Source: Amoebophrya sp. A120 (Eukaryota; Protista; Dinoflagellata). From it: DNA of 64,000 nt. The position numbers and the translations under genes are program-made. The notes beneath the pieces are model-generated. The model did no database searches. It was not told the DNA's origin and saw nothing but the letters and a program-made list of their open reading frames with translations. This document shows positions 6,676 through 61,723 of the stretch, piece by piece (the stretch's first letter is position 1; every line of letters begins with the position of its first letter). The stretch is taken from assembly GCA_905178155.1 (NCBI GenBank), contig CAJINV010000007.1:2523151-2587150 (forward strand), written 5' to 3'.

Positions 6676-7882
6676 CGATCATCGAGCAGCTTTTTTATGC
6701 AAAGGTAAAGTTGTTGTTCGGAAATAAGGAGCTACAGGTCGTGCTGGTGATACTGGCATAGATCCAGAAAGACTCGACAGTATTTCCAGCCACACCAGCT
6801 GCAACTTCTAGAAGTAAACAGGCTACCTTAGTTCCTTCTACTAGAGGTACGGCATAATCATAAAACATACAAGACTTCTTTGTCGTAATCCAGAATCAAA
6901 TATTGATTGTTTCCAGTACTACAAAAAGCTGGACTTCTGCAGTCCAAGCTAAATACGGCGCGTCAATGTAGTGCCACAAGGTGTATCAGATGAGAAAGGG
7001 AAAGGCAAAGGCAAAGGTCCTGAATGATTTCGATTCTTTTTTGGTAAGAACGAACAGAACTGCAACTGTCTGAAGATTGTTCTTCTGCTTCCGATTCTAC
7101 TATCATGCAATCGACTTCTACAATAAGAGAGACTCACTGCCGACGAATTTCATTGTGAAAGGGACCGAGAGAAATTACTACAATGTCACAACATGGACCG
7201 AAATAACAGACGATGGCTCTAACAAGGATTGTGTGATGAGCACGAGTAGCAATCCTCGTCATGCGCGTGTTCATCAAACAATCTTACAACCGAACTGAAA
7301 TTCAGTACAACAGGACACACCAATGCTATAAAATTTTTGCTTGCATTGATTTGATCAACCGATAATAACGGATTCTGCGTGTTCACAGCTCTTACTTCAT
7401 TTCTGAACATCGAATAAGCAAAAAACCATGCGGACGAAGAGAAATAGAGCAAGATTCTCGGCGCATCCTTTCTTATTCTCATCCAACACACAACTCGAAT
7501 TGGGTCGGCAATGAAACTGAAAAAGAAATATCAAAATCTTCAGGTTCAGATTAAGAATCCTCCAACGCCAAGAAATAGAGTATACATTTTATGGTTGAAA
7601 AAAGCTTGGTGTCAATCACCACGACCGATCGAAATTTCAAACATAACACATGTGGTTGTCCTGCCATAAGTAAAACAATGATTGAATAAAACAAACATGG
7701 TAACTTCGAACAAGAAAAACAAAAAACATTCACATAAAATTCACATGATCGGAAAGGCCTACATAATATCATCGACTTGAACTTCTTGGATACTATAATA
7801 TGCGACTACAAATACAACAAGATGAAGAGCCCCTAGCCCCTCGTGCCTTCTGCACTCATTTTAACATAAACCGAAATCATTT

Positions 7883-13444: not shown

Positions 13445-16400
13445 TCACGGCGGTCTAAAAGTGTCGTACCAGAGGGAAAACGGTCCGCCGTCGCCCACCA
13501 GCAAGTTGGTCTCGTCAGCGTGATCGAAGGCCGTTCGGCGCAGCATCTGCAGCATGTCCCTGCTCGCCGTTGGGTCGGTACTGAACGCGAGCGACCGGAT
13601 GTGTTGCAGACACTGCAGGAGGGGCAGGGAAAAGATCAAAAAGTAGAGAAGAACTTCCAGCACGAAGGAAATTCTGGCGGTTCTTGGCATTGTCAAGGTT
13701 CTTGCTGCTCCTACAACTGCCACGCCACCGTTTGATACGTTGCTGTCCCGGCCGAGCCTTGTTTTGAACAGGTACCCAAACCAGCAAAGCGCCACTTGCG
13801 CGCCGAAGACAAACATGACGAAAACGACCCAGGCAAGTAACACGGCAACTGTGCGCACTTGCTGGATCTGGAACCCGTTGTTGGTGTGTAGCGTCAGGAT
13901 GTGCTGCCCGTGGTCTTTACAAGCGTCCACGTTGAACATGCTGGAGGGCTATCCACAATAAATCGAGTTATTGATGTTGTTCCCGCACACGTACAAATTC
14001 AAATCAATGCTGCCTCAGGCTCTGCATGACAAAACTCTTCTTGAATGCTAGTCAACATGTTGAGAAGTTCGAAGCTGTTCAAGTGTTACGCTCTTCTGAG
14101 TTACATAAATAATTTGTGACGCATTTTTCTTTCATCTTTGCATTTACATTTTGTAGGTGTACAACTATACAACTGCAATAATTTTTTTGTACTGCCTAAG
14201 TGGAAGCTGAAGGTCGGTGGCGGACTGCCAGGCTCTCCGTCCAGATCGTCGTTTTCGTACGCAAGAATGGTCACGCACTCCCCGTAAAACAGCTGCACGG
14301 TTTCGAAGATCAGCATGATTAGCAGGGAGTACGGCGCCGCGAGTTTCTGTGCGAGCAGGAGGAGTTGCAGGTTCGACACAGGGAAGTAGGAGGAGGGTTT
14401 AGCGCTTCTGTTCCTTGCCCCGGCATCATCATCCGGGTCACCGTCACCCCCACCGCTCCTGTAGTTTGTTTCTTCGCTATCTTCCGGATTGTACCCTGTA
14501 ACCGGGTTGTCCGCGTCCGGTTTTCCCGCCGGTTGCTCCATCTCCGTAGTTCCCTGGGGTGCCATCGCATGTTGTCCCTCCACGGCTTTATTCTCGCCAG
14601 CAGAACCAGCCTTCTGCTTCGAAGCTGTAGCACCAGGATGGTGCTCGTGCTCCTGCAGATACTGCTTCTCCACGTCGTCGGGGCTGACGTTCGCGCTGGA
14701 AGGAATCCCGGGGCGGGAAACCAAGTCCATGGAGTGCCCACCGCCCGAACCATCCGAACCGGGCATCTCGTCGGACGAGGGCGGCGCGCTGCCGAGGTCG
14801 TTTTCGTTGCCAGAAGATGAATGCGGCTCGTCGTCAATTTGATCCCCACCGTCGTTGTATTCCTCAACTGGCGTAGTACTTGAGATGATCCCACCACCGC
14901 GCTCGTCGTTGTAAAAATCGCTGCCAGAATCACTCGCAGCTGCTCCACCTGATTGCAGTGCAGATGGAAGATGATGGCTAGCGGCTCCTGGACTCCGTCG
15001 CGCTACACTTCGCTGCCGTTTTGTAGATGTTCCCGCTGCACCAGAAGCTTGTCTTTCACGATTTCCCCTCTCCGCATCGACGAAATCCCCATCAAGATCT
15101 TGAGCTGGCGCGCTACTCTTGACCGAAACGGCCGCAAACACCGCAATCGGCACGAGGCCGGAGAAGAGAAACCCCACAGCGGGTAGTAAATACCACAACC
15201 CGCGAAGAATTTGTTCGTTGATGGGCATAATCCCCGGGATCAAAAACACGTTTCCGTAATCCGCCGTCGGGATCCAGGGTGAGTAAATCCGGTTCGGATT
15301 ATGCAATACAAATTTCCAGAACATGCACACGTACAAAATACATCACAAGAAGTTTCGCTAACTTTGTTCATCGTAAAAACTACCACGACTCGTCATGCGA
15401 ACCAGGGTCGAAGGCAAGCTTTGTCATGCGGAAATCGCATTGCTTGTGCGTGTACGGTAAATTGAGATTTACTGTGGATACGGGTACTCCGCGAACAACA
15501 GACCACACCCGATCAGGACCGAGCACACAGACCAGAGTTGGAAGCGTTTTGTCGTTTTCGATTTGATCAGCACGGTGCTGTTAATCGTTCCGACCCGTTC
15601 GAATTCGGCCAGGAATCTGGAACGGGACGGATCTTCATCTGCTGCAACTAACGCTGGTAGGTTTCCAGCAGTCATCCTTGTTCCTCGAAACCTAGCCGAC
15701 CCGAACACCAGCAAACAGGGCCCGAAGATTAGGCCGAAGAGGACAGTCAAGCTGATTAGCAAGACGATCACGAGCGTGACACCGTCCTTCTGGAAACCTT
15801 CCTTCATCAGCAACGTGCTCATCGTCATTGCATTTTCCTCGTCCATGATGGACCGCTGTTGGATTCGCCGCAGGACGAGGGGAAGGTGTTCGCGCAGAGC
15901 CGTCTTGTTCCGGACCAAATAGTTTCTCTCCGTCCACGCGGGGTCTTTCACGATGTACTTGAAACCCGGTGTACCCTGCAGCCGCTCCTCCTCTTCCAGC
16001 TGAGCCTTAATCTTCATCGCGTCCGGGGGCGTTCTCTATCACAAGAAAAGTCGTGCTTCAATACGTTATTAACGGCATTCGGCCGGCAGCAGCGCAGGCA
16101 TGCAAAAGCAGACTGAAATTTGTATGTGTGCTAGGTATATTTTGAATTTGTCACGAAAAAGAATCATTTTGTGCAATAAAACTGCTATTCATCTGTGTTC
16201 AACAGCACTTTTCTGTGTGATATTTTCCTGCTCTCCCGCGGAATGGATTGCAGCTCTTGGGCCTCCAGCACGTCTAGCTGCGCCTTTAGCTTGCGGATTT
16301 GCTCGTCGATGGCTTTATTTTCCTTCTCCTTCTGCCTTTGCTCATCAAGCTCGTAGATGTCCTTAAACGCGTCGTTGATCATTGCGACATGTTCTTCAGT

Positions 16401-18479
16401 TGTCATCGGCTTCTTCTTCTTCTTTTGATTTGTGTGTGCACCACCGGATTTTGTGGTTGGTCTGTCCGAAGAAGTTTCCTGCTTGCTACCTCCGGTCGGG
16501 GTGGATTTTTGCGGCTGCGACAATGGCAGCGGCGTAACGGGGCTTGGTGTGGAAGTAGTTGTTTGTCTCTGCAGGCTGGTAAAATCTACTTCCTTGTTCC
16601 CGGAGGTAGTTGTGTCCGTTGGTGGTCCGGTCGGGGTTGGCGTGCTCGTCATCATGAAGTTCTTGTCAACATCTACTTCTTCGCTGGAGGGTGTACTACC
16701 AGCCGCAGTCGACGTTACTTCACCCTGCCTCAATGTTCTTTGTGGCAGATCATCTGCCATCGGCCCTTCGTGCGACGTCTCGTCAGGACGAGAAGACAGT
16801 GCGGAGTTTGCGCCGGATGCTGCAGCCGGGGTGCCCGCACTACCTGCGCCCCCGTTGCCGTGGCCAGCGGTCTCACCGAGAAGTGGATCTCCTCCTGCGG
16901 GCTCTTGCAATTCCAATTGTTGTTCTCTCGAAACGTCTGGCGAGAAAAGAAAAGGCGCCGGCTCCTGGAGGGATGCAGAACGGTCAGCCACAGAATCAGT
17001 AAAAGCGCCTTCTTCATCACGCTCCTCCGGCAGCACTCGTGGTGCACCAATGTCCGCCAGTGGTAGCGGTGGACCGCGGCCATCTGGTGATGTTGAAAAT
17101 AACGGTAGAGAAGTTCTCGTCGCAGGAGCGGCTGTAGATGATGCAGCGCCTTGTCTTGGCGCCGGTAGTTGCGGCTGTCCTCGTCCTCGTCCCCGTTGGG
17201 CCGCAGTTTGCGGGGTGCTTGTCTCTGACGCGTGCCCATGCGCTTGCGTGTAGTAGCCTGGGTCGTACCGTGGCGCGAATTTCGGCGGGTTGTTCGACAC
17301 TTTCTCTCGGTGCTCCTGTCGTCTGCGCCGCGCAATCTTCACATCCTCCTCCGCCTGCAGTTCCAACCGTCTCTCCCGTGCTAGCCGCTGTTTCTCTTCC
17401 AGCAATTGCTTTTTTTCCTGCTCTAATTCGATTCGTTCTTGCTCAAGTTGCTCGCTTTCGCGTGCGAGCTGCTGCGTCTCTTGCTCCTGTTCTACTTGCC
17501 GATTTTGATTCTCTTCTTGTTCCAGTTCGATAAACATGGACTTGCCGCCTACTTTCTTGCTCTTCGCCGCCTTCTGGCTTTCCAGGTGGCTGCTGTCCTC
17601 ACGAACACCCCGCTCCTGCTCCCGCAATTTACTTTCGAACTCCCTCTCCATCGCCTGCTCTTGAAGTTGAATCAGCCGCACTTCATCCATGCTCGATTGC
17701 GCGAACTGCTTGTCTTGGAGTTGCTCCTTTTTCATCTCCGCGTCCAGCTCCAGTAGTTCGCGTTCGTGTTTTGCTTTCTTCAACTCGTCCAGAGACCACT
17801 TCGTTGCTTCTTCCCGTCGGTGCTCCTCGGCAAGTTTTCTTTCCAACAGCATAGTTTGCTCTTCCGCGATATCGAGAAAGGATGCTTGTTGGGGAAGAAG
17901 TCGTGGTAGCCCCGCTGAAGCAGACGAAGGAGGAGGTCCAACATCTTCTCTTGCACCTCCAGGACGACCTGCATCATGATGGTTGTATTGGTCATTTACA
18001 TTTTCCTGGTTATCGCCCTGGCCGCCAATGAGGTAGTAGTCCTCATAACTGGTCGAAGGTGCCGCGCCATTGGTTTCATCGGGTGGAGTCGAAGACGCAT
18101 AGGAGTTCTTGGAAAAATTAGGTCGATCAAAATAACCATAATTGTCGTCACTTGCAGTCTGCTCCGGCGCTGGTGCAGAGAGTCCTCGCAGATTTCCCCT
18201 CTTTGTTCGCGGACTGTAGGCCACCACGATTGTTTGTGTTCGTTTTCCTCCGTCATTAGCGAAGAAGAGAAAGACGTGAAGTAGGAATGCCAGAACATGG
18301 CGTATTGGAAGGGAGGATGAAGGCATGATCCTCATATTCGACGCTTTTTGAAAGTTGAGGGCAATAGCTGTTGTAGTCGTACAACTCAAAGAGCGGACAT
18401 TATCAACATACATTCTCCAACAGTTTTCGCTTCGTGCTGAAGAAAACGCTTTCACTCCGTCGAGGTCGAATTTTACCAT
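13445..18479 (-). CDS. multi-pass membrane protein (paralog 2) with long low-complexity/coiled-coil N-terminus, 4 exons
   Basis: ORFs 16185-18479, 15469-16017, 14101-15336 and 13445-13939 join in frame (ESRKTPPDAMK, AEYPNRIY, FHSSMFN); shares YP..IY..WIP, WY..PAVGF, QLFYGECV, ISF..EVLL and W.DTF with paralog 1; true start may be a downstream Met before the signal-like segment. Confidence 0.7.
13945..14198. mobile_element. degenerate TIR introner (254 nt)
   Basis: TIR tatccacaataaatcgagttattgatgttg / rc taggcagtacaaaaaaattattgcagttg; TSD agggc/agtgg; removal restores frame and matches the paralog (FHS). Confidence 0.65.
15295..15480. mobile_element. TIR introner, family E (186 nt)
   Basis: left end tatgcaatacaaatttcc (identical to rc of the end at 27776); TSD cggat/cgggt; removal restores frame. 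Confidence 0.75.
16032..16222. mobile_element. TIR introner, family D (191 nt)
   Basis: TIR tatcacaagaaaagt / rc tatcacacagaaaagt; TSD ttctc/ttttc; removal restores frame. Confidence 0.8.
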
Positions 18480-19149
18480 CTCATAAATAAAGCGGTGAAG
18501 GACAGATCCAGAGAAGTACGGCAGAGATAGATTGCATTTGTTATCTACTTTCTTTCATCTTGCGAGAAAAACGATCCAACGATGGGAGTATCAACGATGG
18601 ACAACACAACCCCGAGCGAATGCGAATAAATAAACGCGATTCATCAATCATCGATTTTTACCTTGATGAGGACCTAAGTCAATACCGAGACCTTTGGTCG
18701 TGGGGTTACGCGACTATTTTTACCTCACCTCTCCTGCGTCCTGGTGATGCCTCGACAAGACTCACTCTTGAACCATTTCGACCGATTGCGATTACGAATC
18801 CGATTGCTAAATACCTCCCGTCGACGATTTTTACGAATGTTGCAGAGAGAAAACCTAAAACGGAGGTCGTGGTTTCTTCAATGCTTCGCTGGCAGACATT
18901 GAATCATTGTTCGAATTTTAGGCGATACTTGCTTTTTCCTCAATCTGCGTTTTGGTCGTTTCCTGGTGACCAGGAAGTCGTAGTTGCATCTATTTCTAGT
19001 TCAGCAGCCCGAGTCCAAGATAGAAATCAAAGGTGTCCTCGTCTAGAAGTATGAGTATCTTCATTCAAATTCAACCTTTTCACGACACCTTCTTCTATCT
19101 TCCACAAGAAGATGTGCTAGCGCTTAGCTCATAGTCAGAAGTGAATCAA

Positions 19150-22100
19150 TCATGCGTCTTCCACTTTCTCTTCCGTCCCACCGCCCTTCTCCTCCTCCGC
19201 ATCCCCGACTGCAGACCCGCTGACTGACACCGACTTCACCACAACAGACGCTCCGATTCTTCCGCTTTCCGCCACGTTAGGACTACTACGACCAGCATCA
19301 TCTTTCGCAGTTTCCTCTGCCCTAACTTTTTCCAGATTCAGGAAATCAGGAATGTCAACCCGCTCCCCGTTCTCCACCTTCCTTGCCCATTCCTCCGTTT
19401 CGTTCAATTCCTTCGATTCCCGCTCGTTGTGCGCCTCAATTTCCCCCCTCATGATTCTTTGTTTTTCCAGATACTCTTCCCTCACCAGCTTGTAGAACTG
19501 TCTCCGCTCCTCCCGCGCGTCCAACTTCGCCTGCCGCTTTTCGACCCGAGCCTTCGCGTGTTCGTAGATGTAGTATTCGGCCATCGCGCGTTCCGTGCCG
19601 CGGAGATCCAGTTCCTCGTCGTACAACTTCCGTTCGATTTTGTGGCCCTTTTCCAGGTTTTCCTTGAACATGTCCTTCATCGCCGACACGTCCATCACCG
19701 AGTCGATTAACAGTTCCCCAGTCACGATGTCCCGCTTCGTGTCCTTCAACCGGCGGATCTTCACCTCTCGCGGTAGCATACACCGGGGGAATTTGTTCGC
19801 CTCCCGAACTTCCTTCAGGACGAAGCTGCTCAGGTGCTGCTTCTGCTCGTTCGTGATGTCGTTTGCGGTTATGAGGAAACACTGAATGCGGTCGGCTTTC
19901 AAGTTCGACGGGTGGCCTTTCACAACGCAGTCCTCCACGAACTCGTCAACCTGTTCATTTTTATTTTTGGAAATCGAAATCCTTCTCTTTTTCCCCAAAA
20001 AGATAAGATCTGCTGCACAGCAGGTTCCGGTCAGATGAAGTTTTCAGATTCATCTCCTCCCGTCCCAGAAGCCGAATTATAGCATGATTGATCAAACTGC
20101 AACTAACTGCATAAACTACTAAAGAAACACCACGACGTCAAGAACAAAGTGAAGAAATGATACAACAATATACCAAATTTTGTCCGTGTTGTGTTTTCCT
20201 CCACCTCTCTCGATCCCTTTTTAGTTGCCTTTCCCTATCACCCTTTGTCTGCAAGTTCATCATCATTCGCAGCCTGGTTTTCCATTTCCGCCCCACGATC
20301 CCCCTCCGGTTCCGATATTTCGGTGTCGCAGGTCCCTTGATCTTCGTACTACTGGTCTTTCCATCACCACCACTCGTGGATCCGCCGGTGGTAGTCCCTG
20401 CAGCTCCTGCGGTGTCTATTTCGTCTTCCGGATCATCTTCCAAAACGTTGTCAGGCTTGGGAATCCGTTTGGAAGCCAAGGACAAGACGAAGTTTTCGAT
20501 CTCCGCCGGGTAAAAGACCTGCGGAGTGGAGGTGACGTAGATCACCCGGTCGATGTTCCCCAGGAGCTGAATCGTCACGGGGGCACAGCTATGCGTTGCA
20601 AAACAAGTATCGCACTCGCAACAATTGCACCTAATCGCAATCATGCAAGACAAATCGCCTTCCCAAGCTAAATCAGCATGGCAAAGTCCATTTGTCATGC
20701 ATACCCGACTGCACCACATCAAAAACCTTTGCACCGTCGCCGCAAGCAGCTTCGGACGCAGGAGATCTAGGGTCAGAACCGCGAAAAAACATCGCGAGTA
20801 TTTCTTCATCCCCGGGCACTTATGTTATCTTTACCTTACTTCTCGCTAAGTCCATTTGTCATGCAAACCTAATTTGTATTGCAAGAATTGCTACTAGTTC
20901 TAGTACATGTACGAGACAACTTCTACAATGCATAAGAGGAAACGTGTTGCAGGGGCGGGAGAGACCTGAATTCCTCTTCCTCCGGACGGTCGTTCTGGAG
21001 AGCGGCGAGTTGTGGTTCCACTTCGGAGGATTTTTGCATTTGCTCGCTGACGGAAGCTCCTTGACCTTGGTCTTCATATTGCAAAATCGCCTTCTTTTTC
21101 TTATCCTCCATTAATCTTTTCTGCTTTGCCTTGAATTCCGCTCGTTCCGCCTTCCCCAGCAACCCACTCGCGTACTTTTTTAAGGCGGAGCTCCCGGGTA
21201 ACAGTTTCATCAACTTGTCCCCGATCACCAGAAACTGCTTCGGCAAGGGGTTGACCCCGATCTGTGCCAAAAACATCTCGATCCGCTTCTATCGTGAGAA
21301 AAAAGTGCTTCGCTGTAACTAAGTTTTTTGCAGGTTTTGCATCACAAGTTCGCTCTACATGACAGAGGAAATTTCATCCATGCAAGGTTCCTACAGGGAA
21401 AACGCAGGTGAAATAAATCCACTGTCTTGCATGTGACAAAGACAAGAAACACTACTTGTGACCTATATTTTCTGCCACCTTACATACAAGTTTACAGTGA
21501 AACAGTTTTTTCTGGCGATAGCTTCCACTGCAACTGCAGCGGGGTCAACGCCGACAAGTACACCGGCTGTGTCGGATTCCGGACGATGCACTGCATCAGC
21601 TTCGTCGAATTCGCGGACCGTAGCGCGTCGTCTCGTGCTAGCCCCAAAGCGGTTTCCTTGATCAAACAATCCGCAACGCCTTGCACCACCACGTTGCAGG
21701 ATTTCTTCTTCTTCGAAACACTGATCGCCTGCTTCTGCGGGGAACAGTACGTCGTGTAGGAGGTGGAGTGGTAGGGGGTGGCGATGGTCGAAGTTGATGT
21801 CCTTGCTCCCGTAATTGTTGTAGTACAACCACCTACGGAGGCCTTGGACGGGCTTTGTCTAGGATGAGTACTTGTTGCGGCACTACTGAAAGCAGTTCTT
21901 TTACTCGGAGATGAGAACGGCGTCGGTTTCTGCTCTGGTACTTCCTTGTCCTTCCTACCACTGCCTTTCAACGAGGTCAAAAACCCGCCAACGCCACCCT
22001 TCGAGGACGCAGATTTATTTTTTCCGGGTGATGACAGAAACGACTTCTCCGCAATCGCTTTCGCGGTGTTCCGGTTTTCCGCGTATTCGAGCGCCTTCGC

Positions 22101-25100
22101 GACGTCTTCATCCGCCTTGTCATACAAGCAGTGGTAAAACTGCCTCCGCGGACTCGTCGCTCGTTTTTCCTCGGTGTTCCCAATGCCATCCAGGAAACTG
22201 GTCGTGCGCGCCGCCGTCTTCGCGCCGCCCCGGTCCAATTCCGGCAGGTTCAGATCGATCGACGCGATGGGCATCGAGGTCGTGTGCGCCGGGACGAAGA
22301 CTTCTGTATTGGGGCCAAGCATCAGAGACTTCTCCAACTCTTTTCGCTCGTTACTGTCAAAGGCGAAATTCTTCGGAAAGAAATACTCCAGCGACCCCGT
22401 GCCGGAAACGAGAATGTGCTTCTCGATGAACTGGTTCGCGATCTCCTCCTCTGGATTCTTCAACAGCTGCCAGTTCTTCTGCTGTTTAAACTGCTCTATT
22501 CTGTGCAAAAGTATCGCTTCGCATACTGCTCGTAGTAGAATTCTTGCATGACTTTGGTGGTCTACGGGCAGGAAATCCCGATGGCACATTCTTGCATGAC
22601 AGATTCGTTGTTTCTTCAATACCTTCATTTCCGGCATGAAAAACAGAACTGCAGTTTTGATGCTTTTCTTTTTGAGAAATTAAAATCAATAGTAAAACGA
22701 TGCGCCGGATGCTAGCTTTTATTGTACTGCATATGCTCCAAGACGGACTTCGTAACGTCAATGCGGCTCATTTCCTCGCCGAGGACCAGAACGTCCGCGA
22801 CGGTTCTCGCCGTTCGGGAATTGGCGCCGTAGAACTTGTTCTGGATCTTCTTGTCGTAAAGCGACCGCGCATGGGCGTACTTCGGTCCGCCGTGATTGAA
22901 GAAGCTGGCTTCGACGTTCTTCTTATCAAATGTAAAAATGTCTGGGTCTGGATCTGGAAGAATGCAGACTTGTCATGCAGGTTTTCCATGACCCATGAGG
23001 TCTGGTATGAAGGACATAGCATGACAGATTATGTGACAGTTCTATCATGCGTATCCTGCATGAGAAACTGCCTCTCGATTAGGTCAAAAGTGGCCGGCCA
23101 GCTTTTTGTAATCACGCAACACAAATTTTTGAATGATTCTGATTTAGCATGACAAGTTAGATTCTTCCAGACCCAGACATTTTTGCATTTCATACTTCTC
23201 CTCTTTCAGCAATCCGTAACGACTGTGTTTTGCCTCCCGTTTCTCTTTTTCCGTCCGCGGGGAGAAAGTTCTCGGGATCACCTCGTGCGCTCGTTTCTCC
23301 CCGACCACATCGTGCACGCGCACCGCCTTCGGCCGGGAAAAGTTCAGAATCGCGTTGCCCTCTTGGGTGCGCTCCAAGAGATCGTCGGCGGCCAGGCGGA
23401 GTTCGCCGGGACTGGGCGGGATTTCGTGATCGATGGCGGGGTTGATACTGTAGTTCTTTATTTGCGAAGATGTTGATGATGTCGCACTATTACTTGCATA
23501 AGCAGCTGCGTTGTTCCGGTCCAGCTGCACAGACGAATTGGCGGACGAAACCAGGTGGATCGAGTTCTGTGACGCGAAAGTGACGCCCTTGCTCTGCTGG
23601 TTTTGTTGTTCATCTCTCGACGTCCTCGAGATGGTCCGCTTCATGATTTCCGAACCACTTTGCTGTTTTTGTGGTCCTGGTGGTCCACCGGCTATCAGCG
23701 AGCTCTTCGCCGGTGAGTTCGACGCTGAGCTGACGTCTTTCACCTCTAGCGCGGGCAAGAAGCCTCCGTAGCGCGGTTTGGCTTTCGGATCCGGTTTTTT
23801 CAAAGTCTCCCCAGTGACTCCTGCGGATGCGGAGGACAGGTCCGCACCGGGATCAGTGGCAGCTAGTTCTTCGTGCTCCTTTGGCCGCGGCAGCGTCGGA
23901 TCCACCGACGACGTTGCTGGCATGACTTTATTTCTTGTCGATGTTTCAGCCGGACTGCGACTGGAGGGTCTCGTCGTGGTAGTTACAAGTACACCTGCCC
24001 TTATCTTCTCAGCAGCCGAAAAATGATCCTCCTCTGGTTCTTTGTTGTTCCCCTTCCTCACTGGGGACTCAATCCAACCCCTCTTCCGCTTCCTGTGCCA
24101 CGGGACCACTTCCCCCTGACTGTCGTCGCTGTCGACTGGGGACGGCGGTGGCACTGTTTTTTCACTTACAAAGACCTCCGCGGGCTGCACCCCGTCCAGC
24201 ACCGTCCAGGGCATCCGCGCGTTCTCCTCGTCGAGCAGCCGCTTCGTGACTTTGAAGATGACGCTTTCCAAGATCAAAACCGCTTTCTTCCGCTGCAACA
24301 ACATCGGGTCCTGCAGAATTTTCCCCGGGCACGACCTCCTTCGGGCGTAGTACAGCGGATCGAACAGCGTCGCGGTGCCCTTCTTCTTTTTCTTCTTCTT
24401 CACGTGCTGGCCTTTTTTCTTCGGTTTCGGCGATTTCCCCCCGTCCATCATCATCTGGTCCGCTAGGGAAACCGGCCCCGCGGGCGGTTTTGCCTCCTTC
24501 TTCGGCGTCTTCGCTTTTTTGGGTGTTTTCGGCCGATCGCCACCAGCCACGATTCTTCCCAAATCCACTCTGTGGTCCGCAGTATTCTCCTCTCCTGCTG
24601 GTCCTGCGTTGTTGTCCTCTTTGTCCGAACTTGGATCCAAAACGGTTTTCACGTAGTACATCTGTCTTTTCTGCACAACGTTCCGCGGCAATGGGTTGTC
24701 CACGCTCGTGAATTTCAACCTGCCCGGGCAGAGCTCCGCCAGTTTCAATTTTTCGAAATTCCGCCTCCTCCACAGCTGGCCAAACAAGTCGCATCTCTCG
24801 CTGCACTGGATCCTCTGCATGTGGATCAGCTCAAATTCCGTGGGTTTGAACTTCGCCATGTTGTGCTTCTTCATATCAGCTAAATTCCGGGCCCGCATGG
24901 TCATCTTCTGGAGCGTCGGGCTTGCGCACTGGAACTTCGTCGGTACGTGCTGTGCCGCGGCCGCGATCTCTTTTTCCGTCGGCGGTTTCTGGAGCCGGGC
25001 GGTCAGCGGGTCGAACTCCTTTTCTACTGGAGGGAGTTGTTCATGATCATGATCTCCACCAGCAGCTCTCTGTTCTGGATTCTTGTACCCCGCGGCTGTT

Positions 25101-28100
25101 GCTCCTGCTGTTCTTCCGGAAATAAACGGTTCCCTCGCCAACCCGTTCTCGATTTCCTCCGCCGTCGGTAAAATTTCCTCTTCTTCTTGCTTCCGCTGGT
25201 TCAGCACCACAGCCGGTTCCCCGGACCACATGGACGCTTTGAACGCCAGGAAGCCGGAGCCGAGCAAGCGGATCCGATGCTTCTTTTGCCTCTTCGATTC
25301 TTTAACTTCACGTGCTGGGATTTCAGGTAGTAGAGTTTGTTCCAAAACAAAGGGGTCTTCAAACACCCAGGAACCCTTTGTCTGCAGCGCCAGATGGAAT
25401 CGCTGTTTGTGCTGCTGCTGTTCTTCTACTTGCTCGAGTGCTTTATTTTCGTTGTAGAACATCAATGCCGGAGGAGCGGCATGTCGTGTTGCGGTAGCTT
25501 GTTCACCATGATCATCTTCCGCTACTTCGACCGCCCCCACCGTCTTCGTCCTCGTTCCAATTTTTTGTTCCGACTGTTCATCTTCGTCGTAGATTGCTTC
25601 CCTCCTGCTCATCACTTGTTCCAGCCTCTCTCTTACTTTCTTATCCCGCTCCGAAAACTCTACTTCCACTTCCGGATCCCCGATGAACTTCGGGTACATG
25701 CGCGCTGCCCGCATCCCCCCGGCGATGATTCTGTTCATCCGGTCCTGCCAGCTCGGTTTGTGCACGACGCCCCGCATTCCGGACAGCGGATGGTAGATCA
25801 TCGCGTCGGAATGGAGCTCTTTCCGCAAGCGGTTCCGCTCCATCCCCATCTGACACACCGCCTTCAGCATGTTGGCGTCGAAGTAGTAGCCGCAGAAATT
25901 CGACTGAGACCGCACAAACAGCTCCTTCGTGAACGGATCGCACTTCACGGGGGAGACGCAGACGAGCGTTCCGTTCGGGATGTCCCGGCAGTCCCCCGCG
26001 GACAAACACCGCGCTTCGTGGCGCAAGTCCAACAGCGCGCGGTACTCCTTCTTCCTCCGTTTCCACGTCAATTGCTCCAGTGTCAACGGCGGCGGCGATT
26101 CCTTCTTCTCCCCCCGTTTCTTCTGCATCGGCGTCTGCCGCTCCTTCTCCAATTCCCGGGCCCGGTTCTCATCCTGGAGGTCGGTTTCGGTTGTCACTTT
26201 CTGCGAAATCATAAGCGCCGTGGCGAGTTTGGTCCGTAACTTGCCCTTCGCTTTCGACCGCATCGCGAAACCTCCGAGACCACTGGGCGTGGCGGGCGTG
26301 GAAGCAGTAGCAGTTGCGCCTTCGCCAGCAGAATGAGGTGTGAGACTATCGGCGCCAGCTCCTGCAACGGCAGAAGAACTCGAATGTCCACCTTCTTGTT
26401 CTCCTTGTTTCGGCGTGGTTCCCCCAGCGACATCTGACTCCATCCCGGCCCCGCCTGTATCCACTGAAACTAATTTCCTGTACAACATCAATACCCACAT
26501 CATGCGCATTATATGGCGCCTCCGCAAACGGACTGCTCTCGGCCTACCTTACTCGGGATTCCAAAAGCCGCCCGCCTCCAGCTTTAGGCTTAAAAAACCA
26601 GCATCTGTCAATTTCATGCATTTGTTTTATGTTTTATCATTCGTACGTCAGAACCAATCCACGCGGCGTGCGCCGCGTGGGAAAAATTAAAACAACTATT
26701 CAGCGTAGGCCTCATTTTAGTGCCAGTCTGTCCTGAAAAATTTTCGCGCTCGACTTTGTCGGCCCAGTGCCAGTCTGTCCTGAAAAATTTTCGCGCTCGA
26801 CTTTGTCGGCCATAATAAAGTGGCCGCGTTTGGCTTCTCTCGAAGTGGCCAAATTCGGGAGAAGACAAAGACGGCCAGCTTTTGGCTTCGTCTCTGAGGC
26901 CCAGACTAACAAACAAGCAACGGGGTCGCTTCTCGCTTTACAATAGTGGCCAGCAGCTTTGGCGGCTTTTATTTCGGAGGCCCGGCCAGATCATGAGGAA
27001 ACCAGGAAAGTAAGAGCTCGCCTGTTGTCCGCTACCTAGCCAGGCCTCGCTTTTTGCTTTTACAAAAGCGCGCAGCTTTAGTTTCTTGTCAAAGTGCCAG
27101 GCGCTTCTTGAGCGACGGGAATCGAGACAGCACTGCGCGAAGCATCTAAACGCGAACGAGGCCCAGTCGCGCTCTTTCCACCCGGCGCGTTAGTCGAAAA
27201 AAACACTTCTTGGGTTTGCAAGCTTCAAAAAAGCTGCAGAAAACCTTCAGAAGATTTTTGGACCTTCAGAAGAGTCTCAACCTTCAGAAGGCCTTCAGGA
27301 AGGTTTTTTGACCTTCTGAAGGTCAAAAAATAATGCGCCACTTTTCGCAATTTTTTTTGTCAAAAAATGCCAATTTTTTTCATTCGGCCTTCAGAAGGTT
27401 TTCAAATTTCCACCTTCAGAAGATCAAAAACCTTCAGGAAGGTCAAAAATGAACAGCAGAAAAACCTTCAGAAGCTTTTGCGCATCAAAATTCTTCTGAA
27501 GGTTTCAAAAACCTTCAGGAAGGTCAAAAACCTTCAGAAGGTCAGCTTCTGAAGGTGTGAAAAAAAAACTGTTTTCTTTGAAACAGGACCTGAATCCGTT
27601 CCGATTTTATGTCTTTTTCAAAACAGCCATTTTTGAACCTTCAGAAGATTTTTGAATTCTTCTGAAGGTTCTTCTGAAGAATTTTCTTCTGAAGGTTGTG
27701 GTGATTTTTTCCCTTATAGTCCTTCTATTTACTTGCGTGCACTGGTACAAGAACTACGGGAAATTTGTATTGCATAACCCGCTAACGGATGCTCCAGATC
27801 AACACCATCCACGCCCTCCTCGTCGATTAGCCCGGATTCCGCGTCCAAGCTCTATGCATTGCAAAGGTGTCGACCGTACTAGTAAAAAGCGCATCACAAT
27901 AAATTCCAATTCGGCAAAAATGACATTACAAAAGTGGAAGTTGTAGGGCGGATTTGCGTGGTTGAGAAAAAGACTTCCATTTTTTCTTGTTCAGTCCATG
28001 TTTCTGATTTTTGCAACTTCAAAAGTACAACGAGTACGATACTTTCCTTTTTTTGCAAAATGCGTAAATCTTGCAATTCCTCGATTTTCCTATCCTCCTC

Positions 28101-31100
28101 ATCCGGCGTCAACATGGGTTCCCAGACGCGCCAGGCGATCAACCCGCACTCTGCCGTGTAGTACGCTTCGATCACCTGCCTGTGCTGGTTTCGCAGAGTC
28201 CGGCGAAACGTCCCCCGCAGCAGACTGTTGTTCACGACGAGCAGGATCACGAGATCGAAGCTCCACTGGTCGATCAGGCGCAGTTTGTGAGGGGGTAACG
28301 CAGTGAAAGTCGGCTTCACGCGCGGGAGCCACTGTCGGTTGATCAGCTTCTGTCTGATGACGGGGGGATCCGTGTTGCAGACGGTTTCGCTGGTGTGGAT
28401 GCAACCGCCCGCCCACAGGGTCACCAGCATGTAAAAGAGCGTGCTGTAATTTTCGTATGGCGGGAGAAAGAGGCCGCGCGCGTGGGAGCCGTTGACAGCG
28501 GATTTCAGGGCCTTTCTTTTCTCGCCGGGTACTAAGGGTTCTTGATTCGGGTTCTTCATGCTTGTCGTGGTCAGAAGCTTCTTCGGGTCGAGGGCATAAT
28601 TCTTGCGATTCTTGTCCGTTGATGTCATGATCCCCGCCGTTTTTAAATCGACGGGAAACCCGTTCTCATCGTATTCCGTTCTTTCTTCGACGATTTCCGC
28701 TTCTTTCGCTAGCGACTCGGTGTCCTGGCAGGTCTTGTGCAGCCGCAAAGCCCGGACGTGCGGCTGCAAAGTTGCGAAGACCGACTCGAAGCTCCGGACG
28801 AGCGGTCGGCAGAGCGTTTCTTCCCGGGACCTCACCTGGTACTGCAGGAACCACACCGACTCGGGCTCGATCGCCACGCAGCTCGGTTTGAAATAGAGAA
28901 TCGAGCCGTGCTTACAGAGATGGTCCACAGACGTGCACACGGGGACAGTCAGCATCCCCTCCCTGCCGACGTAAACTTCGTCCGTGTACGGGGGGACGAC
29001 GTCAGATACGTCGATCTCGGGCTTTACTGGGATTTCCGGTTGTTCCGGGGGAGGCGTGGCTGCCCCGCCCTTTTTCTTCTTTTTTTTCTTTTTCGGCTTA
29101 CTATCTGATGCTGCTGCCTCGCCATCCGCCGCTTCGCGGCCTTCAGCTCTCGCTGCAGCTTCTGCTGCATTTTTTGGATCTCGATCTGCTGCAGTCATTT
29201 CACCGTCCTCGCCGGAGTTGTTCTCTTGTTCTTTGTTTTCAAGAATGCTAGCGCTGTTCATTCCCGCCGTGTCGATACTCGGCTCCACGGAGTGTGCGAC
29301 TTGCTCGATACTGGGCTCCGGGCCGTCCTGGCTGTCCACGTCGTGGTCCTCATCGTCTTTATTTTCTTCGGCGTCGTCGTCCCCGTCTCCACCGCCCGCA
29401 GCCGCAAAAGCGGCCAACTCCGCATCCAAGTCCTCCTCTTCCTCCGCCTTCACCACGATCGTGGGCGGTTTCGGAATCTCCTGCTCGAACCCCGGCTCCT
29501 TGGGGAAAAAGATCAGCTTCGGCTCCACCTGCGCCACGATTTGCTCAACGAACGTCGCCAGCTTCGCTCTTCGGTCCCGGTCCTTTATCCAGGAAAAAAC
29601 ACCCATCCAAACCCATTTTTGGCATGACATCAAACACTGGAAATTATGCATCTTTCGCATGACAAATTGGATAGAGATGGGTGTTTTTTTCTGGATATCT
29701 TTCTGCCAATCGACACGCCAGAGGTGTGGGAAGCGCCTATCCTTCGCGGCTTTCCGGTGCACCTGTCTAGTTTCGTAGTCCGACTGGTCTTCGTCAGACC
29801 GCATCTTCGCGCCCTCGGAGTCATCCGAGCCGTATTGCTCCTCGTTGTCGGAGGATTCCGTTTCCGAACCGCCGATCAACGCCTGCACCATCTGCGCCGA
29901 CGCCGCCATCTGGTGTTCCACCTGGTCCTCCTGGTGCTGGTGCTTCCTTCTTGTTTTCCCAGAAGATTTGTTTGGCGCGGCCCTAGCGGAGACACCGTTG
30001 ATCCCTGGGGGCGCGCTGGCTTGGTGCGGAGGTTCTTCATCGTCTGCATGAAGATCTTGATCTTCCCCCGCAGCACTTTTCTTCGGCGGCGTCTCCCCAG
30101 ACTGTTTCAAAGCGCGGGCTTTGTCGTCCAGCAGTTTGTTCTGGAATTTCGCGACGTTTCTAGTCTTCGACATGGTGTTGTTGTTGTTTGAGGAAGGACT
30201 TCTACTACTACTAGCAACGCGACCTCCTCCTCCTCCTGCCGTTCCCGGTCTGCTTGGCGCTGCAGAGGAAGACGACGACGTCGTCGCACCACCGCCGCCT
30301 TGCGTAGAAGTGCCATTGTCTTCTCCAGCGGTCGTCGTCCCCCCGTTTCCCTCCTCACTCGCGGCCTCTTCCCCGGGTGATTTCGCTTTGCCGCCGAATA
30401 GCTCATTCCCACCCGGCGCACCTTCGTACACCTTGATTGTCGGGGGACCGTAACTGCCATCGGGCTTCGCTTCCTTCGCCCCGTTGGACCGCGCAGCGAG
30501 CAGCATGTCTCTTCGTTGGTCTTCCCACTTCGATTTCTGCAGTATGGGAGTTGTGCACAACTGTCGTGGAGGTCGTCCCTCTCGCTCTACCCTCATAATT
30601 TGCATGATAGCATGATCTACAAAGAGTTGCAATACAAGCAGCAAAGAACAATGCCAATGCTGCAGCTTCTCCATGACAAACATGCCCGTCGATTGTGTAG
30701 CGCAGTTTCGCTTCACCCAGGGACTTTTGTGCGATGCAAACAGCGCTGCCAAAAGGCTGCAAACTAACAGGCAACGCAAGCCGGTTGGCGGGTATACTTT
30801 GGCTTTGGTATTTACTTTGCATGACAGGTAAGGAGCGAAAGAAAAAACAAAAACGACTCATGCACTCTCATATGCAGTGTCCCGCCCTGCGGCTTGATTC
30901 GCCGGAACCAGCTGTCTAGCATGCGGTCCGGGTCCCGCGCCGCCGCAATGCCCTCCAACTTCGCTGTTTCCGCCGCCTCCCTCTCCGCCGCTTCCCTTGC
31001 AATTCGCCCAGTCGGGTCGTCGAGATCCTCTTGACTCGGCCCGCGGACGATTTCAGTCCCATTATCCTGTGCAGACCCGCCCTTCTTCCCTCTCTTCTTC

Positions 31101-32440
31101 CCCAAACCGAACTTCTTCTTCGAAGCAACTGATCCTGCGTTGCCCAAAGCCGCTTGCCTTCTTTTTTCCTCCGCTGCCGTTGCTTTGTCCATGGCTGTTT
31201 GGATTGCCAAGCTTTGCATCTTCTTTTTCATGTTCTGCACGTCCTCCGCTGCCTTCTCCAGCACCGCGGCGGCAAGCCTCTGCATCTGCGGATTCAGCGC
31301 CGGCGCGGTCTCGTCCCGCAGTCTCGCGATCTCCCAGCCTTCGAGCAATTTTCTTAACTGCCTCCCAAACTTCGTGTCTTGCCCGCCGGGGAGCCTGGTG
31401 AGAAACGTGTTCCGGTGGATGTTGTCTCGCCACTTTTCGTCTTCGGTTTTCCGCGGCCCGTGGATCCGTTGCGCCATGTCCGGCGGCGGCTCCTCTGGAA
31501 CTGGGATCAAGGCGCTGTTCGCCTTATTGCTTTCTTCGGCTTTTTTCTTTTTCGTATCTTCATCTGCTGCTGAAGCAGTAGATGGTCGCACTCCTACTTC
31601 CCCACTGGCTTGCTCCACCGCATTCGCGGCGGCCTCCTGCTCTTCCCTTTCTCGTCTCGAGGGCAGCCTCCGCCCGGTCTCCTCATCGTACTCCGTATCT
31701 TCCGTATCGTTGCCACTGTCGGAAAAAGCGTCGAGGCCGTCGGTTAAGGCAGACAGCCTCTGTATCCCCGTTTGCTTCCTTTTAAACTCTTCGAATTCGC
31801 TACTGTAGATGAACGCCTCTCGGACTTTATGGGAATGTCAGGATCGAAATCGACAAAGTTGAAATTATGATTTGCCATGCATAAAATGGATGCCAGTTGT
31901 GACCCAGTAGTTTCTAAGTGGTTCATGACAAAGTTTTTGGGTACTAGAGCCGCTGCCGCAGTCCAGTTTGTCATGCTGTTTAGGGACAGAACCAGAAGGC
32001 GTCTTTTGTCATGCTACTTTAGCAGCTTTATCGCAGCCCCCAAACAGGCTGACAGTCGGCCTCACTTGCCATCCCTGCAAGAGAGGCACTTCACGCCTTG
32101 CAGTTTATGCACGAGAAATCATCTCAACTTTGTCGATTTCAATCCTGACACATCCATAGACTTCGTCGATGGAATAGTCGGAAAAATCGACGAGAACCGG
32201 GATGAAACCGAAGAAGCTGCAGGCGAGCAGCATCTCCAGAAAGTCGACGCCATTGTTGGACAGGAGTAAAATCCGGTCACCGGGGACCAGAGAATAGAAG
32301 GACTTCAACCCGGCGCCGGCCTTCAAAGCGCGCTCGTGGAGTTCGCCGTAGGTGCGGGTGGTTTCTTTCTCCTTGCTCCATTCCAGGACGGCTAGGCGGT
32401 CTTTCCAGTGGCGGAGGACGGATTCCAGCGTGGCGGTCAT
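19150..32440 (-). CDS. giant (~3,200 aa) protein with a fragmented, degenerate AMP-binding/adenylate-forming (ANL) fold, 11 exons
   Basis: Exons 32440-32159, 31822-30918, 30501-29698, 29580-28067, 27847-27777, 26452-23195, 22918-22734, 22491-21521, 21284-20935, 20584-20173 and 19994-19150 total 9597 nt in one frame; ANL-like motifs occur in canonical order (TYGELHERA, GDRILLL..PVLVD, EAYYTAECG, ELFVRSQSNFCGY, LLGNIDRVI..PAEIE, VEDCVVKGHP..MLPREV..TGEL). Confidence 0.7.
19995..20172. mobile_element. non-canonical intron, probably a decayed introner (178 nt)
   Basis: direct repeat ccaaa; removal joins QNL-GKKRR; TIR barely recognisable. Confidence 0.5.
20585..20934. mobile_element. TIR introner, family C, with internal cargo (350 nt)
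   Basis: TIR tatgcgttgcaaaa / rc tatgcattgtagaa; TSD acagc/agagg; joins HVSS-APVTIQ; contains a ~160-nt segment shared with 44753-44910. Confidence 0.75.
21285..21520. mobile_element. TIR introner, family D (236 nt)
   Basis: TIR tatcgtgagaaaaaagtgcttcgctgtaa / rc tatcgccagaaaaaactgtttcactgtaa; perfect TSD gcttc; joins QWK-RIEM. Confidence 0.88.
22492..22733. mobile_element. TIR introner, family C (242 nt)
   Basis: left end tattctgtgcaaaagtatcgc; perfect TSD tgctc; joins SVLE-QFKQ. Confidence 0.8.
22919..23194. mobile_element. TIR introner, family A (276 nt)
   Basis: ~29-nt TIR tat.aaatg.aaaaatgtctgggtctgga; perfect TSD cttct; joins KEEK-NVEA. Confidence 0.92.
26719..26811. repeat. 47-bp tandem duplication
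   Basis: agtgccagtctgtcctgaaaaattttcgcgctcgactttgtcggcc, two copies. Confidence 0.9.
27230..27700. repeat. cluster of ccttcagaag/cttctgaagg motifs in both orientations
   Basis: many copies of (aa)ccttcag(a/g)ag and its reverse complement separated by A/T tracts. Confidence 0.85.
27848..28066. mobile_element. TIR introner, family C (219 nt)
   Basis: tatgcattgcaaagg / rc tacgcattttgcaaaa...aagtatcg; degenerate TSD; joins ELQD-LDAESG. Confidence 0.65.
29581..29697. mobile_element. short in-frame TIR introner (117 nt, stop-free)
   Basis: 22-nt TIR tatccag.aaaaaacacccatc; TSD tcctt/tcttt; internal gcatgac motifs; lies inside ORF 27894-30779. Confidence 0.85.
30503..30918. mobile_element. degenerate introner (416 nt)
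   Basis: direct repeat (a)gcatg; internal catgaca motifs; joins DRM-LLAARS. Confidence 0.65.
31823..32158. mobile_element. TIR introner, family B (336 nt), inverted relative to the other B copies
   Basis: TIR tatgg...tgtcaggat.gaaatcgacaaagttga; perfect TSD gactt; joins IDEV-REAF. Confidence 0.92.
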
Positions 32441-38951: not shown

Positions 38952-41697
38952 TTAGTTATCCTGCCCGTGCAAAATCCGTGAGTACTCTGGTTTGACCTTG
39001 CCCAACGTCACGTCCCTTCTGCGGTTGATTGCCGATCGGGCAATCTTGGGGTGTAAGTCGACCGGTTTCCGACGGCCAACCGGCTCGTAATCGCGGAGCA
39101 CTTCGCCTGTCGTTTTGTATGATTTATGATGTTTCGTCGATGAAGATGCGGCTTTTCAAAAAAGCGAAACGCTTTCACTTTGAAACACGTCCATGTGTAA
39201 GTGAAAAAAGTAAAGTGATATGACACCATACGTAGTAGACGGTGAGCGAGCTGTGAGTATTTCACTACACCAAGATAAAGAACGACCGCTTTAGTGTACC
39301 CTTGTAAACTTGGAATGGTCTGTAGATTCTGTTTTCCGGGTCCTGGACCCACTCGGACCAGTGCGCCAGCCACCCGGACAACCGCGGGATCGTAAAGAGA
39401 ACGGTGAACACGTCCGTTGGGATGCCCATGGCCTTGTAAATCAGGCCGGAATAGAAGTCGACGTTTGGGTACAACTTTTTCGACTTGAAGTAGTCGTCCG
39501 AGAGAGCGATCTTCTCCAACTGCATCGCCACGTCAATCAGCGGGTCGGGGCCGGTGAGCGCAAAAACGTCGTCCAGAATCTTGCGGACGACCTTGGCGCG
39601 CGGGTCGTACGACTTGTACACCTGACGAAGATTATTTTGTTCTTTTGCACAACGATTCAACCAACTTGTGATGAGGAGTTGCAGAGCGCTCTGCTGGAAA
39701 TTATTACGCACCGGCATGGAGAATAAAAAATTTACCACCCACGATAAACTTCCCCGTCAGACAAAACTACATATCATGATACGCAATTCGACGAAATATT
39801 ACAGTGTAAAGTCGAAATACAAGAACTGTACCCGATGCCCGAACCCCATCAACTTCGCCTTCTTGTTTTTCACCTTCGCGATAAATTCGTCCACCTTCGA
39901 CACATGCCCAATCGAATCCAGCATCCGCAGCACCGCTTCGTTCGCGCCACCGTGCCTCGGCCCATACAAGGCGCCGCAGGCTCCGGCGATCGCCGTATAG
40001 ACGTCCACGTTGGAGGAGGCCAAGTGGCGCATGGCCGACGTCGAACAGTTCAATTCGTGCTCGGCGTGGAGCAGGAGCAAAACGTCCATCGCCTTCACGA
40101 GCGTCGGGTGTGGTCGATAACTCGGTCCCTCGTTCATCACGTCGAGCATGTAGAGAAAATTCTCCGTGTACCCAAGATTTTCATTTGGCGCCACCATGGG
40201 TCTTCCTAGTCTGTGCCTGTACGCCATGGCGGCGAGCGTGGGGCCGGCGCCGATCACACGGGCGATCTGCTTGTTGCGTACTTCAGCGGACTTGTAGCTG
40301 ATTGTAGTTTTTGTTCACTAGTTGCAAGTTTATGTTTAATATCTTCTTCGTAGTGCGAAGTAGAAGTAGCTAAGGTCATATTCATGTCTTCTTCATCCAA
40401 CGTGAGCGTGAACGTAGCAGCTTGAATTTGAAGTAAAATCAAATAGAGAACTAGATGTCCGCCTCCAGCAACATCTTCTTCTAGGTTGTTCTCAAAAAAA
40501 TACATGTCCTGCCCCGCCAGCGCGGGATTTTGCTCCGGGTAAATCGTGCCCAGAGCCGCAAACGCTGCTGTGATCATCCCCATCGGGTGTGCGTCGTACC
40601 GGAAGGTTGCATGCATTTTCACCAAATCCTCCGACACGTATCACAAGAAAAAGTGTTCACGTTTACGGTCTTCACAGATTGCAGCCATGCATGATCACAA
40701 ATATAGCCCCCTAGTATGCAGGTTATGAATGAGGACAGATTTGGGCACGTTTTGCTTTTGTGATGCATTGCTGCATCACAAGTTCCAACAGTTCCGTAAA
40801 CGTATAAAATTTTTTCTTGTGATAACACGTGCACGTGTTCCATGATCGCCGTGTTCCACGACTTCAGCTGGCTCGCGTCGGGTAGATTTCCGTAATTCAG
40901 CAAATAGGCCACCTCCAGGTAGTTCGACTGGGCGGCTAATTGCTCGATCGGGATGCCGCGGTACCGGAGAATTCCCTTGTCCCCGTCGATGAAGGATATG
41001 GAAGCGTCAGAATTGAAATCGTCAAAGTTGAAATAGAAATAGTTTGTGACGCATATATAAAATGCTAGACGCAAAATGCCTGTCTTGCAGAGCAGGCAAC
41101 TGAGGCCGATTATACTCCTGCTTGGGGTGTGAGATAGAGCTGCTAAAATAGCATGACAAAAGCGGTCTTCTCTGCCCAAACAGCATGACAAATTGGATTT
41201 CCATGCTGCCTAAATTTGTCATGCGCAACTTGCAACCTGGGCTCCAGCTGGTATCGCTTTTTTGCATTACAGATTATTTCAACTTTGATGATTTCGATCC
41301 TGACACTCCCATACAGGAAATACGGGAGATACAGCACGTGGTGTTCATGTACCCCGGATCAAATGTTTTCAACGGGGCGCCGTTTGCGTCTTTCACTTGC
41401 TTCAGATCCGTCGCTTTGATGGTGTTGTTCGTGATGGCGAGCTTGTAGCTGGTGATGTGGGAGTACGTTTGTGATGTTGTCGTGCACTGAAAAAAAAAGC
41501 CAATTTCGAATAACAAAAAAAATGCGGCTGCAGGATTTGTCACGCAGGTCTTCTTATACATCAACCAAAAATCTCAATCTATTATACCTTTTCCCATTCC
41601 TGTTATCCGTGATTGTAATTGTGTCGCCTCCACCTCCGCTGTCCGTCTGGCTCGCTGCGACGACCTGATTCGCGATCCGGTCGACGCGGTGCGCCAT
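38952..41697 (-). CDS. CS: citrate synthase, peroxisomal/glyoxysomal (type II-like), 7 exons
   Basis: [73 protein letters not shown]; GT-AG introns 41449-41587, 40298-40503, 39622-39831, 39107-39299; introners 40992-41313 and 40634-40824; PTS2-like N-terminal RVDRIANQV. Confidence 0.93.
40634..40824. mobile_element. TIR introner, family D (191 nt)
   Basis: TIR tatcacaagaaaaa...acgtttacgg; perfect TSD acacg; joins HVHV-SEDL. Confidence 0.9.
40992..41313. mobile_element. TIR introner, family B (322 nt)
   Basis: 39-nt TIR tatgg.ag.gtcag.at.gaaatc.tcaaagttgaaata; TSD aagga/cagga; restores conserved [10 protein letters not shown]. Confidence 0.92.
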
Positions 41698-61243: not shown

Positions 61244-61723
61244 CTTTATTTCTTTGATAGAATTACGAGGGCACTATGCAAATACTTGATGAGCGGAATG
61301 ACGTCGATGCACTACAACAATCCTGTTTCAGATTCTAGATTCCTAAAGTCGAGACGTAATCTTCATCGAACGAGCGAGCAGTGGCGCGATCGATCAGGAT
61401 CAAAAACAATGCATATGGATATGCAGTGCTTGGCGTTAATTGCATGACAGAGATGATATTGGAAAAAAAGTAGATAAAGATATAGAAAGAAAAAGTACAA
61501 CATCCAAAGCCATACACTTCTTGCTGTTGTTGAGGACCATGCTGCTTCAACGCAGTGGAAAATTTCGGGAGGCAAAACGGTTTTCCACTTCATGCTAGCG
61601 TGCGGTGGATAAAAAATTTAACGTTCTGCTCTTGCTCAACATCATGGTGATGGTGAAGTTGATAACCTCAGCACTTTCATAAGTTTGAGTAATGTTAATA
61701 AGGGCAAAAAAAAACAAAACACT

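Follow-up and report, generated by a model that had tools for sequence, protein, structure and literature searches.

A dispersed ANL-like domain, probably inactive, in an introner-rich gene of Amoebophrya sp. A120

The ANL superfamily (PF00501 and PF13193) includes the acyl- and aryl-CoA synthetases, the fatty acyl-AMP ligases (FAALs), the adenylation domains of non-ribosomal peptide synthetases and the luciferases. Its motifs include A3, (S/T)(S/T)G(S/T)TGxPK, A8, Rx(D/K)x6G, and A10, PxxxxGK, the lysine of which is experimentally required (PMC10510592). Here we describe a gene of ANL ancestry on the minus strand, 32440–19150, of a 64,000-nucleotide stretch of the dinoflagellate Amoebophrya sp. 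A120 (assembly GCA_905178155.1, contig CAJINV010000007.1, positions 2,523,151 to 2,587,150; the window, whose own numbering is used throughout). As in the superfamily, blocks resembling A1 to A10 follow in order in a free-standing arrangement that starts at the N-terminus, whereas here A3, A7, A8 and A10 depart from the consensus and the core is interrupted by eight inserts of 32 to 1,217 residues.

Several described systems share single traits with this locus. The Dip2/CPS1 FAAL-like proteins are likewise eukaryotic ANL derivatives with diverged motifs (PMC8460268), but Dip2 combines a DMAP-binding domain with a tandem pair of FAAL-like domains and is considered active (PMC12055004), whereas the present gene has one exploded domain; Pfam found no DMAP-binding domain in its nine open reading frames (ORFs), and there is one set of ANL blocks only. 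Metabolic enzymes of Plasmodium, also an alveolate parasite, contain hydrophilic, poorly conserved regions (PMC3197514), while here about 84% of the protein consists of inserts and the catalytic motifs have been lost. The trypanosome prozyme is a catalytically dead enzyme derivative kept in a parasite (PMC5201418), of another fold; no active partner was identified here. Each element has precedents (pseudoenzymes, alveolate proteins laden with inserts, introners); a literature search, with most subscription papers outside its reach, returned neither their combination at this scale nor any description of the gene or of such a protein.

Our preferred reading, to which we give a probability of roughly 55%, is that nine ANL-derived blocks, together about 520 residues, refold into an inactive core that serves as a scaffold for about 2,700 residues of mostly charged inserts.

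ANL blocks and the state of their motifs

ANL ancestry is firm at the N-terminus. The first exon (amino acids 1–94) matches PF00501 at an E-value of 2.9e-11 with 43.2 bits (cut-off 29.9), over model positions 4–78 only. It hits 33 NCBIfam families at E<=10, of which the best 25 listed are all acyl-CoA ligase or adenylation types, and its best matches among the sequences of solved structures are the ANL entries 3kxw, 5kei, 8wev and 8weu. Elsewhere sequence comparison suggests an ANL signal that is weak but correctly ordered. Two of 11 isolated stretches gave weak matches in the expected order, to PF00501 positions 210–331 (E 0.28) and PF13193 positions 11–66 (E 0.016, below the cut-off), and two others weakly matched unrelated families; no second catalytic domain was found by Pfam in the nine ORFs and 11 sub-stretches. 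The original prediction had placed the ANL motifs in the right order, and every region it named, together with A4, could be located in the sequence: A1 at residue 29, A2 at 50, the A3 region at 928, A4 at 1061, A5 at 1162, A6 at 1395, A8 at 2814–2837 and the C-terminal subdomain from 2949.

Sixteen motif windows were scored against a local ANL profile built from 16 of 19 candidate bacterial ANL proteins, which, being small and selected for having a P-loop, cannot serve as an independent control for whether motifs are present. In eight windows the expected site came first and in two second, at P<0.05 only for A1, A2, A4 and the C-subdomain; for the C-subdomain block none of 300 shuffles did as well. 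These windows, and the tiling, P0002-profile and motif-string tests below, were run on a 3,233-residue gene model, since replaced, in which positions after about residue 1220 are 23 higher. In HH-suite, A8 plus the C-subdomain scored 39.9 versus 24.2 in 40 shuffles. Nine hand-picked blocks (523 residues), joined after removal of the inserts, reached 98.5% over 446 columns of the ANL profile, end to end, and 90.6% without exon 1, where the score was 54.3 and the highest of 40 within-block shuffles 22.2.

A full HMMER scan of 1.84 billion representatives returned two matches, P0002, a distant homolog of 432 amino acids (E 8e-5), and P0001, which was discarded as a repetitive artefact. P0002 holds A4, A5 and A6 in one ORF, with spacers between the blocks that differ in length from those of our gene; in pairwise comparison exon 4 matches it at E 4e-8 and 4e-6, and the A6 block of exon 6 at E 9e-7. 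Aligned with P0002, the A4–A6 region falls in register on ANL positions 217–402 (score 32.2; maximum of 60 shuffles, 24.0), and it is jointly, and through this homolog, that the middle blocks appear to gain their support. A third protein, P0003 (261 amino acids, NCBI), is 96% identical over 224 residues. Three word-index searches returned nothing in two cases and P0003 alone in the third, no relative turned up in two scans of metagenomes and one of viruses, and Atlas gave no usable match for two stretches. Among PDB sequences the middle blocks, P0002 and the alignment of these had no match at E<=10, and the C-subdomain had three weak, unrelated ones.

Several results weigh against our preferred reading. 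Singly, the middle blocks are weak (A4 P 0.03, left part of A3 0.21, A5 0.65, A6 0.15). When ordered tiling was run blind and exon 1 left out, P values ranged between 0.005 and 0.4 in six settings, two of which were at or below 0.025; the motif chain, better than all 1,000 local shuffles, has several blocks wrong; and the best of 40 block-order shuffles of the joined blocks scored 54.31 (mean 29.5), next to 54.30 observed. P0002 is the sole distant homolog found, with A3 outside its coverage. The profile check that the original prediction had proposed for the joined blocks gave an end-to-end match in HH-suite, on a construct picked by eye and post hoc; plain hmmsearch finds only the first and last blocks. 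The individual weakness of the middle blocks and the mixed blind tests would suit a relic, in which only the N- and C-terminal blocks are true ANL remnants, the blocks have ceased to fold as one and the protein functions through its inserts, as would the 1,217-residue insert separating A7 from A8. We consider a relic improbable, since A4, A5 and A6 are selectively conserved in the distant P0002 despite differing insert lengths, and since the block spacing, once the inserts are removed, reproduces an ANL domain of about 520 residues.

The A5 motif of ANL enzymes is YGxTE, which is also the A5 consensus of the local profile. Neither this string nor any of the TSGxTG or (S/T)GD type occurs anywhere in the predicted protein. 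The loop aligned with the A3 phosphate loop (residues 938–955) contains no glycine or lysine. A5 retains its tyrosine and glutamate and has lost its glycine, in the gene and in P0002 alike, and this common non-canonical form points to selection on a non-standard core. The candidate for A7, (S/T)GD, at residues 1579–1586 keeps at most the aspartate. At the A8 hinge (2814–2837) the arginine is replaced by asparagine and the glycine is missing, and the A8 pattern matches twice elsewhere in the 3,233-residue model, out of register. The C-subdomain lacks the GK of A10, for which the best-scoring site is residue 597, in an insert about 2,400 residues upstream (P 0.22). The predicted loss of the P-loop, the A8 arginine and the A10 lysine was therefore borne out, the in-register consensus being absent at A3, A8 and A10, and at A7 too.

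Because these four motifs all fail in register, the predicted protein has likely lost adenylation activity, and with ANL-like blocks and failed catalytic features it is not filed as an active ANL member. An enzyme that is highly divergent yet active, with altered chemistry as proposed for the eukaryotic FAAL-like domains of Dip2, would account for the retention of all ANL blocks in order, and has precedents in the divergent motifs of such domains (PMC8460268) and in the treatment of Dip2 as catalytically active (PMC12055004). That A3, A7, A8 and A10 all miss the described consensus, including a lysine required by experiment (PMC10510592), nevertheless makes such an enzyme a poor candidate here.

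Exons, introners and transcription

Nine ORF pieces lie on the minus strand in changing frames, between lower-GC stretches bearing terminal inverted repeats. The gene model has 11 exons with an open frame of 9,633 nucleotides and one terminal stop, 3,210 amino acids in all, which agrees with the single frame of about 3,200 residues and 9.6 kb originally proposed. X1 and X7 below denote sequencing runs.

32159–32440 (minus): exon 1 (residues 1–94), ANL N-terminus with A1 and A2; PF00501 positions 4–78
31823–32158 (minus): intron 1, 336 nt, introner with TAT..ATA ends, direct repeat 5/5 and terminal inverted repeats; predicted, no spliced RNA contig
30873–31822 (minus): exon 2, closing part of the first ANL block and a charged insert after it
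30538–30872 (minus): intron 2, 335 nt, introner type; predicted from TAT..ATA ends, direct repeat 5/5 and a kept frame
29698–30537 (minus): exon 3, low-complexity insert
29581–29697 (minus): intron 3, 117 nt, introner, in frame and stop-free; joint 29580/29698 in X1
28066–29580 (minus): exon 4, degenerate A3 region (28871–28788), A4 and A5 (28169–28143); matches to PF00501 210–331 and P0002
27847–28065 (minus): intron 4, 219 nt, introner type with TAC start and direct repeat 1/5; joint 27846/28066 in X1, with 25 nt on its shorter side
27777–27846 (minus): exon 5, 70 nt, 3' boundary predicted
26453–27776 (minus): intron 5, 1,324 nt, putative introner expanded through nested palindromic repeats, on which the connection of the gene halves hinges
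23195–26452 (minus): exon 6, A6 block (25927–25883), A7 candidate (25375–25352) and start of the 1,217-residue insert
22919–23194 (minus): intron 6, 276 nt, high-copy introner; joint 22918/23195 in X1, copy at 10037–10305
22734–22918 (minus): exon 7, insert
22492–22733 (minus): intron 7, 242 nt, introner; joint 22491/22734 in X1
21521–22491 (minus): exon 8, insert
21285–21520 (minus): intron 8, 236 nt, introner; joint 21284/21521 in X1 and X7
20935–21284 (minus): exon 9, insert
20585–20934 (minus): intron 9, 350 nt, introner type; joint 20584/20935 in X1
20172–20584 (minus): exon 10, degenerate A8 hinge (20566–20495), then 99-residue insert
19949–20171 (minus): intron 10, 223 nt, canonical GT-AG; joint 19948/20172 in X1 and X7
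19150–19948 (minus): exon 11, ANL C-subdomain, degenerate A10 (19779–19705), charged 175-residue tail and stop; PF13193 11–66

Seven of the ten joints are present in spliced X1 contigs, matching the window without differing letters, and two of the seven also in X7; X1, X7 and X8 derive from one sample, are listed as RNA in the public record by guess, and consist of assembled contigs. Contigs of X2 pass such introns unspliced (for example 27702–31857), so that the skips in X1 are best read as splicing. A transcript contig at the 3' end extends past the stop to 18921. Raw reads from further RNA runs gave 28 (X4) and 8 (X5) partial matches of 90–95% identity, on intron repeats, and none at 99% in X6. 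The locus is likely a gene that is transcribed and spliced, with a single predicted product of 3,210 residues encoded by what we infer to be one continuous mRNA. The existence of one gene of ANL ancestry, as first proposed, draws support from the spliced contigs, the introner anatomy, the two homologs and the profile comparisons.

Ten non-canonical introns had been predicted; 19949–20171 proved a canonical GT-AG intron, and the other nine are of the TA..TA introner type. All nine obey a TA..TA plus 5 nt rule, as do all six RNA-seen non-canonical introns among them and two of a neighbouring gene; the direct repeat is 5/5 in five of the nine, 4/5 in one, 3/5 in two and 1/5 in one. Introners of Amoebophrya have terminal inverted repeats, direct repeats of 3–5 nt and, in strain A120, a TAT start, and the genes form co-oriented blocks (PMC7789003). 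The same repeats, TAT start and co-oriented blocks recur at this locus, along with repeated copies and very high depth in X2; the 1.3-kb element with its nested repeats is the sole new feature. Between 4527 and 52062 a simple scan lists 18 elements that have TAT..ATA ends and both inverted and direct repeats, some of them from common families. A 159-bp internal segment is common to intron 9 and an element near 44753 (94% identity).

The joints of introns 1, 2 and 5 (31823–32158, 30538–30872 and 26453–27776) are predicted from introner anatomy and the homologs. Introns 1 and 2 have perfect 5-nt repeats, obey the TA..TA rule and preserve the frame. Intron 1 has relatives within the window at 40997–41316 and 9670–9990, and is missing in P0003, whose protein continues directly over the junction. 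Intron 5 poses a real doubt because exon 5, when read through, reaches a stop. Its 5' end is identical at 18 of 18 positions to one terminus of an RNA-confirmed introner at 15295–15480, the other terminus of that introner is similar to its 3' end, and the TA..TA cut restores the frame; the interior holds nested palindromic and tandem repeats, among them a perfect 47-bp tandem duplication (26719–26811), and parts of it are repeated elsewhere in the genome, judging by X2 depth. A GT-AG model of intron 5 (26478–27732, giving 3,233 residues) also kept the frame; it gave way to the introner cut, since introner termini account better for where the boundaries lie.

The gap bears on whether the locus is one gene at all. 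No contig covers the whole of it, X1 depth is 0 over 25288–26615, and the RNA support comes entirely from assembled contigs of one sample, all of which counts against a single long transcript; the check for a cDNA of about 9.6 kb found seven of ten joints and no contig spanning the gene. Two co-oriented genes, the first ending near 27.73 kb and the second starting at an ATG near 26.5 kb, would fit the read-through stop of exon 5, the upstream Met codons of the exon-6 ORF, the lack of RNA across the gap and its 1.3-kb length, far above the median intron of 208–247 nt (PMC7789003). We regard this as very improbable. Both gap ends are introner termini of an RNA-confirmed family with the frame restored, P0002 bridges the position of intron 5 with A4, A5 and A6 in one frame, and the depth declines from the 3' end, as expected of one long mRNA, from about 25 to 0 at 25.3–26.6 kb; two spliced contigs of low depth lie upstream of this.

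Across runs of one sample the depth is about 25, 5 and 0 over the 3' exons and 14, 9 and 8 over the upstream gene; contig depth is a poor measure, and these differences are hints of condition-dependent expression. The downstream neighbour (14199–18486, minus strand) is represented by one 5.3-kb spliced contig in X1, is low in X7 and absent in X8, a pattern like that of the gene studied here.

Inserts, predicted folds and possible function

The ANL core is spread over 3,035 residues by eight inserts of 588, 162, 90, 32, 160, 164, 1,217 and 99 residues and is followed by a tail of 175; the largest insert lies between A7 and A8 and contains hydrophobic windows at 1744–1823, 1915–1982 and 2656–2734. 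The initial description of hundreds of charged or disordered residues between motifs holds in that the inserts are mostly charged and long, but their range is 32 to 1,217 residues and, to judge by the hydrophobic windows, parts of them do not look disordered. This genome, like that of Plasmodium (PMC3197514), is prone to long hydrophilic inserts, and those of the gene described here are extreme in degree and known in kind. Two paralogous multi-membrane-span genes in the window (7883–9679 and 14101–16035, minus strand; no Pfam match) each have a low-complexity loop of about 270 residues between conserved blocks. The long loops of neighbouring genes suggest that the inserts of our gene may be partly neutral, a point that tells against their being arms of a scaffold.

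Single-sequence AlphaFold modelled the exon-4 core at a predicted local distance difference test (pLDDT) value of 34 and the C-subdomain fragment without the A8 helix at 69, in one of five models. The latter had no Foldseek match at E<=0.001, and its best VIA Z, 8.1, was to unrelated alpha/beta domains, with no ANL among the matches listed; neither model is informative as to the fold of the core.

The A4, A5 and A6 blocks line the substrate pocket of ANL enzymes, and they are the very parts conserved with P0002. The protein might on this account be a non-catalytic ligand binder or regulator, its core binding a fatty acid, acyl-CoA or nucleotide, or regulating an active paralog, with inserts that are mostly neutral baggage. 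Retention of the A5 tyrosine and glutamate, and possibly the A7 aspartate, would suit such a role. P0003 differs from exon 1 at one of 94 residues but has both substitutions and indels in the insert after it, which, like the loops of the neighbouring genes and the near-neutral non-globular regions of Plasmodium enzymes (PMC3197514), favours neutral inserts. We think a binder of this kind unlikely: the phosphate-binding loop without glycine argues against ATP binding, and the 64-kb window contains no active paralog.

If the blocks do refold into an inactive scaffold core, as we prefer, the ancestor would have been a free-standing, acyl-CoA-ligase-like gene that lost its adenylation chemistry while the core strands and helices were retained under selection. 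Hydrophilic inserts would have been acquired at loop positions, introners would then have invaded the gene independently, and the blocks would today refold into one inactive core carrying long charged arms. A further extension, which we put forward tentatively and hold to be rather doubtful, is a lineage-specific conserved family of giant ANL pseudoenzymes, co-opted as a condition-regulated structural hub, in which a two-subdomain fold comes together again despite inserts as long as 1,200 residues; were it true, this would be among the most extreme discontinuous domains, would escape standard annotation and would hint at the nature of many unannotated genes in these parasites. For about 60% of the proteins of Amoebophrya no function has been assigned (PMC7789003). 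If a 520-residue fold can hide in 3,200 residues, split in the DNA by introners and in the protein by inserts, some of them may prove to be enzymes or pseudoenzymes that can be recognised. The locus is in any case a natural test of insertion tolerance in a two-subdomain fold, and a candidate free-standing ANL pseudoenzyme.

Other features of the window

Pieces of a citrate synthase gene (PF00285), broken up by introners, lie at 39799–41209 on the minus strand. The same strand carries an alpha/beta-hydrolase (BD-FAE) at 4801–6678, with a membrane anchor predicted by eye and a long Ser/Thr-rich stalk, and a weak SET-domain match (E 4e-4) at 51024–51923. From about 61700 to 64000 a short tandem repeat array leads up to the Ns of an assembly gap, after which comes a repeat-like element that is rich in GC (68%).

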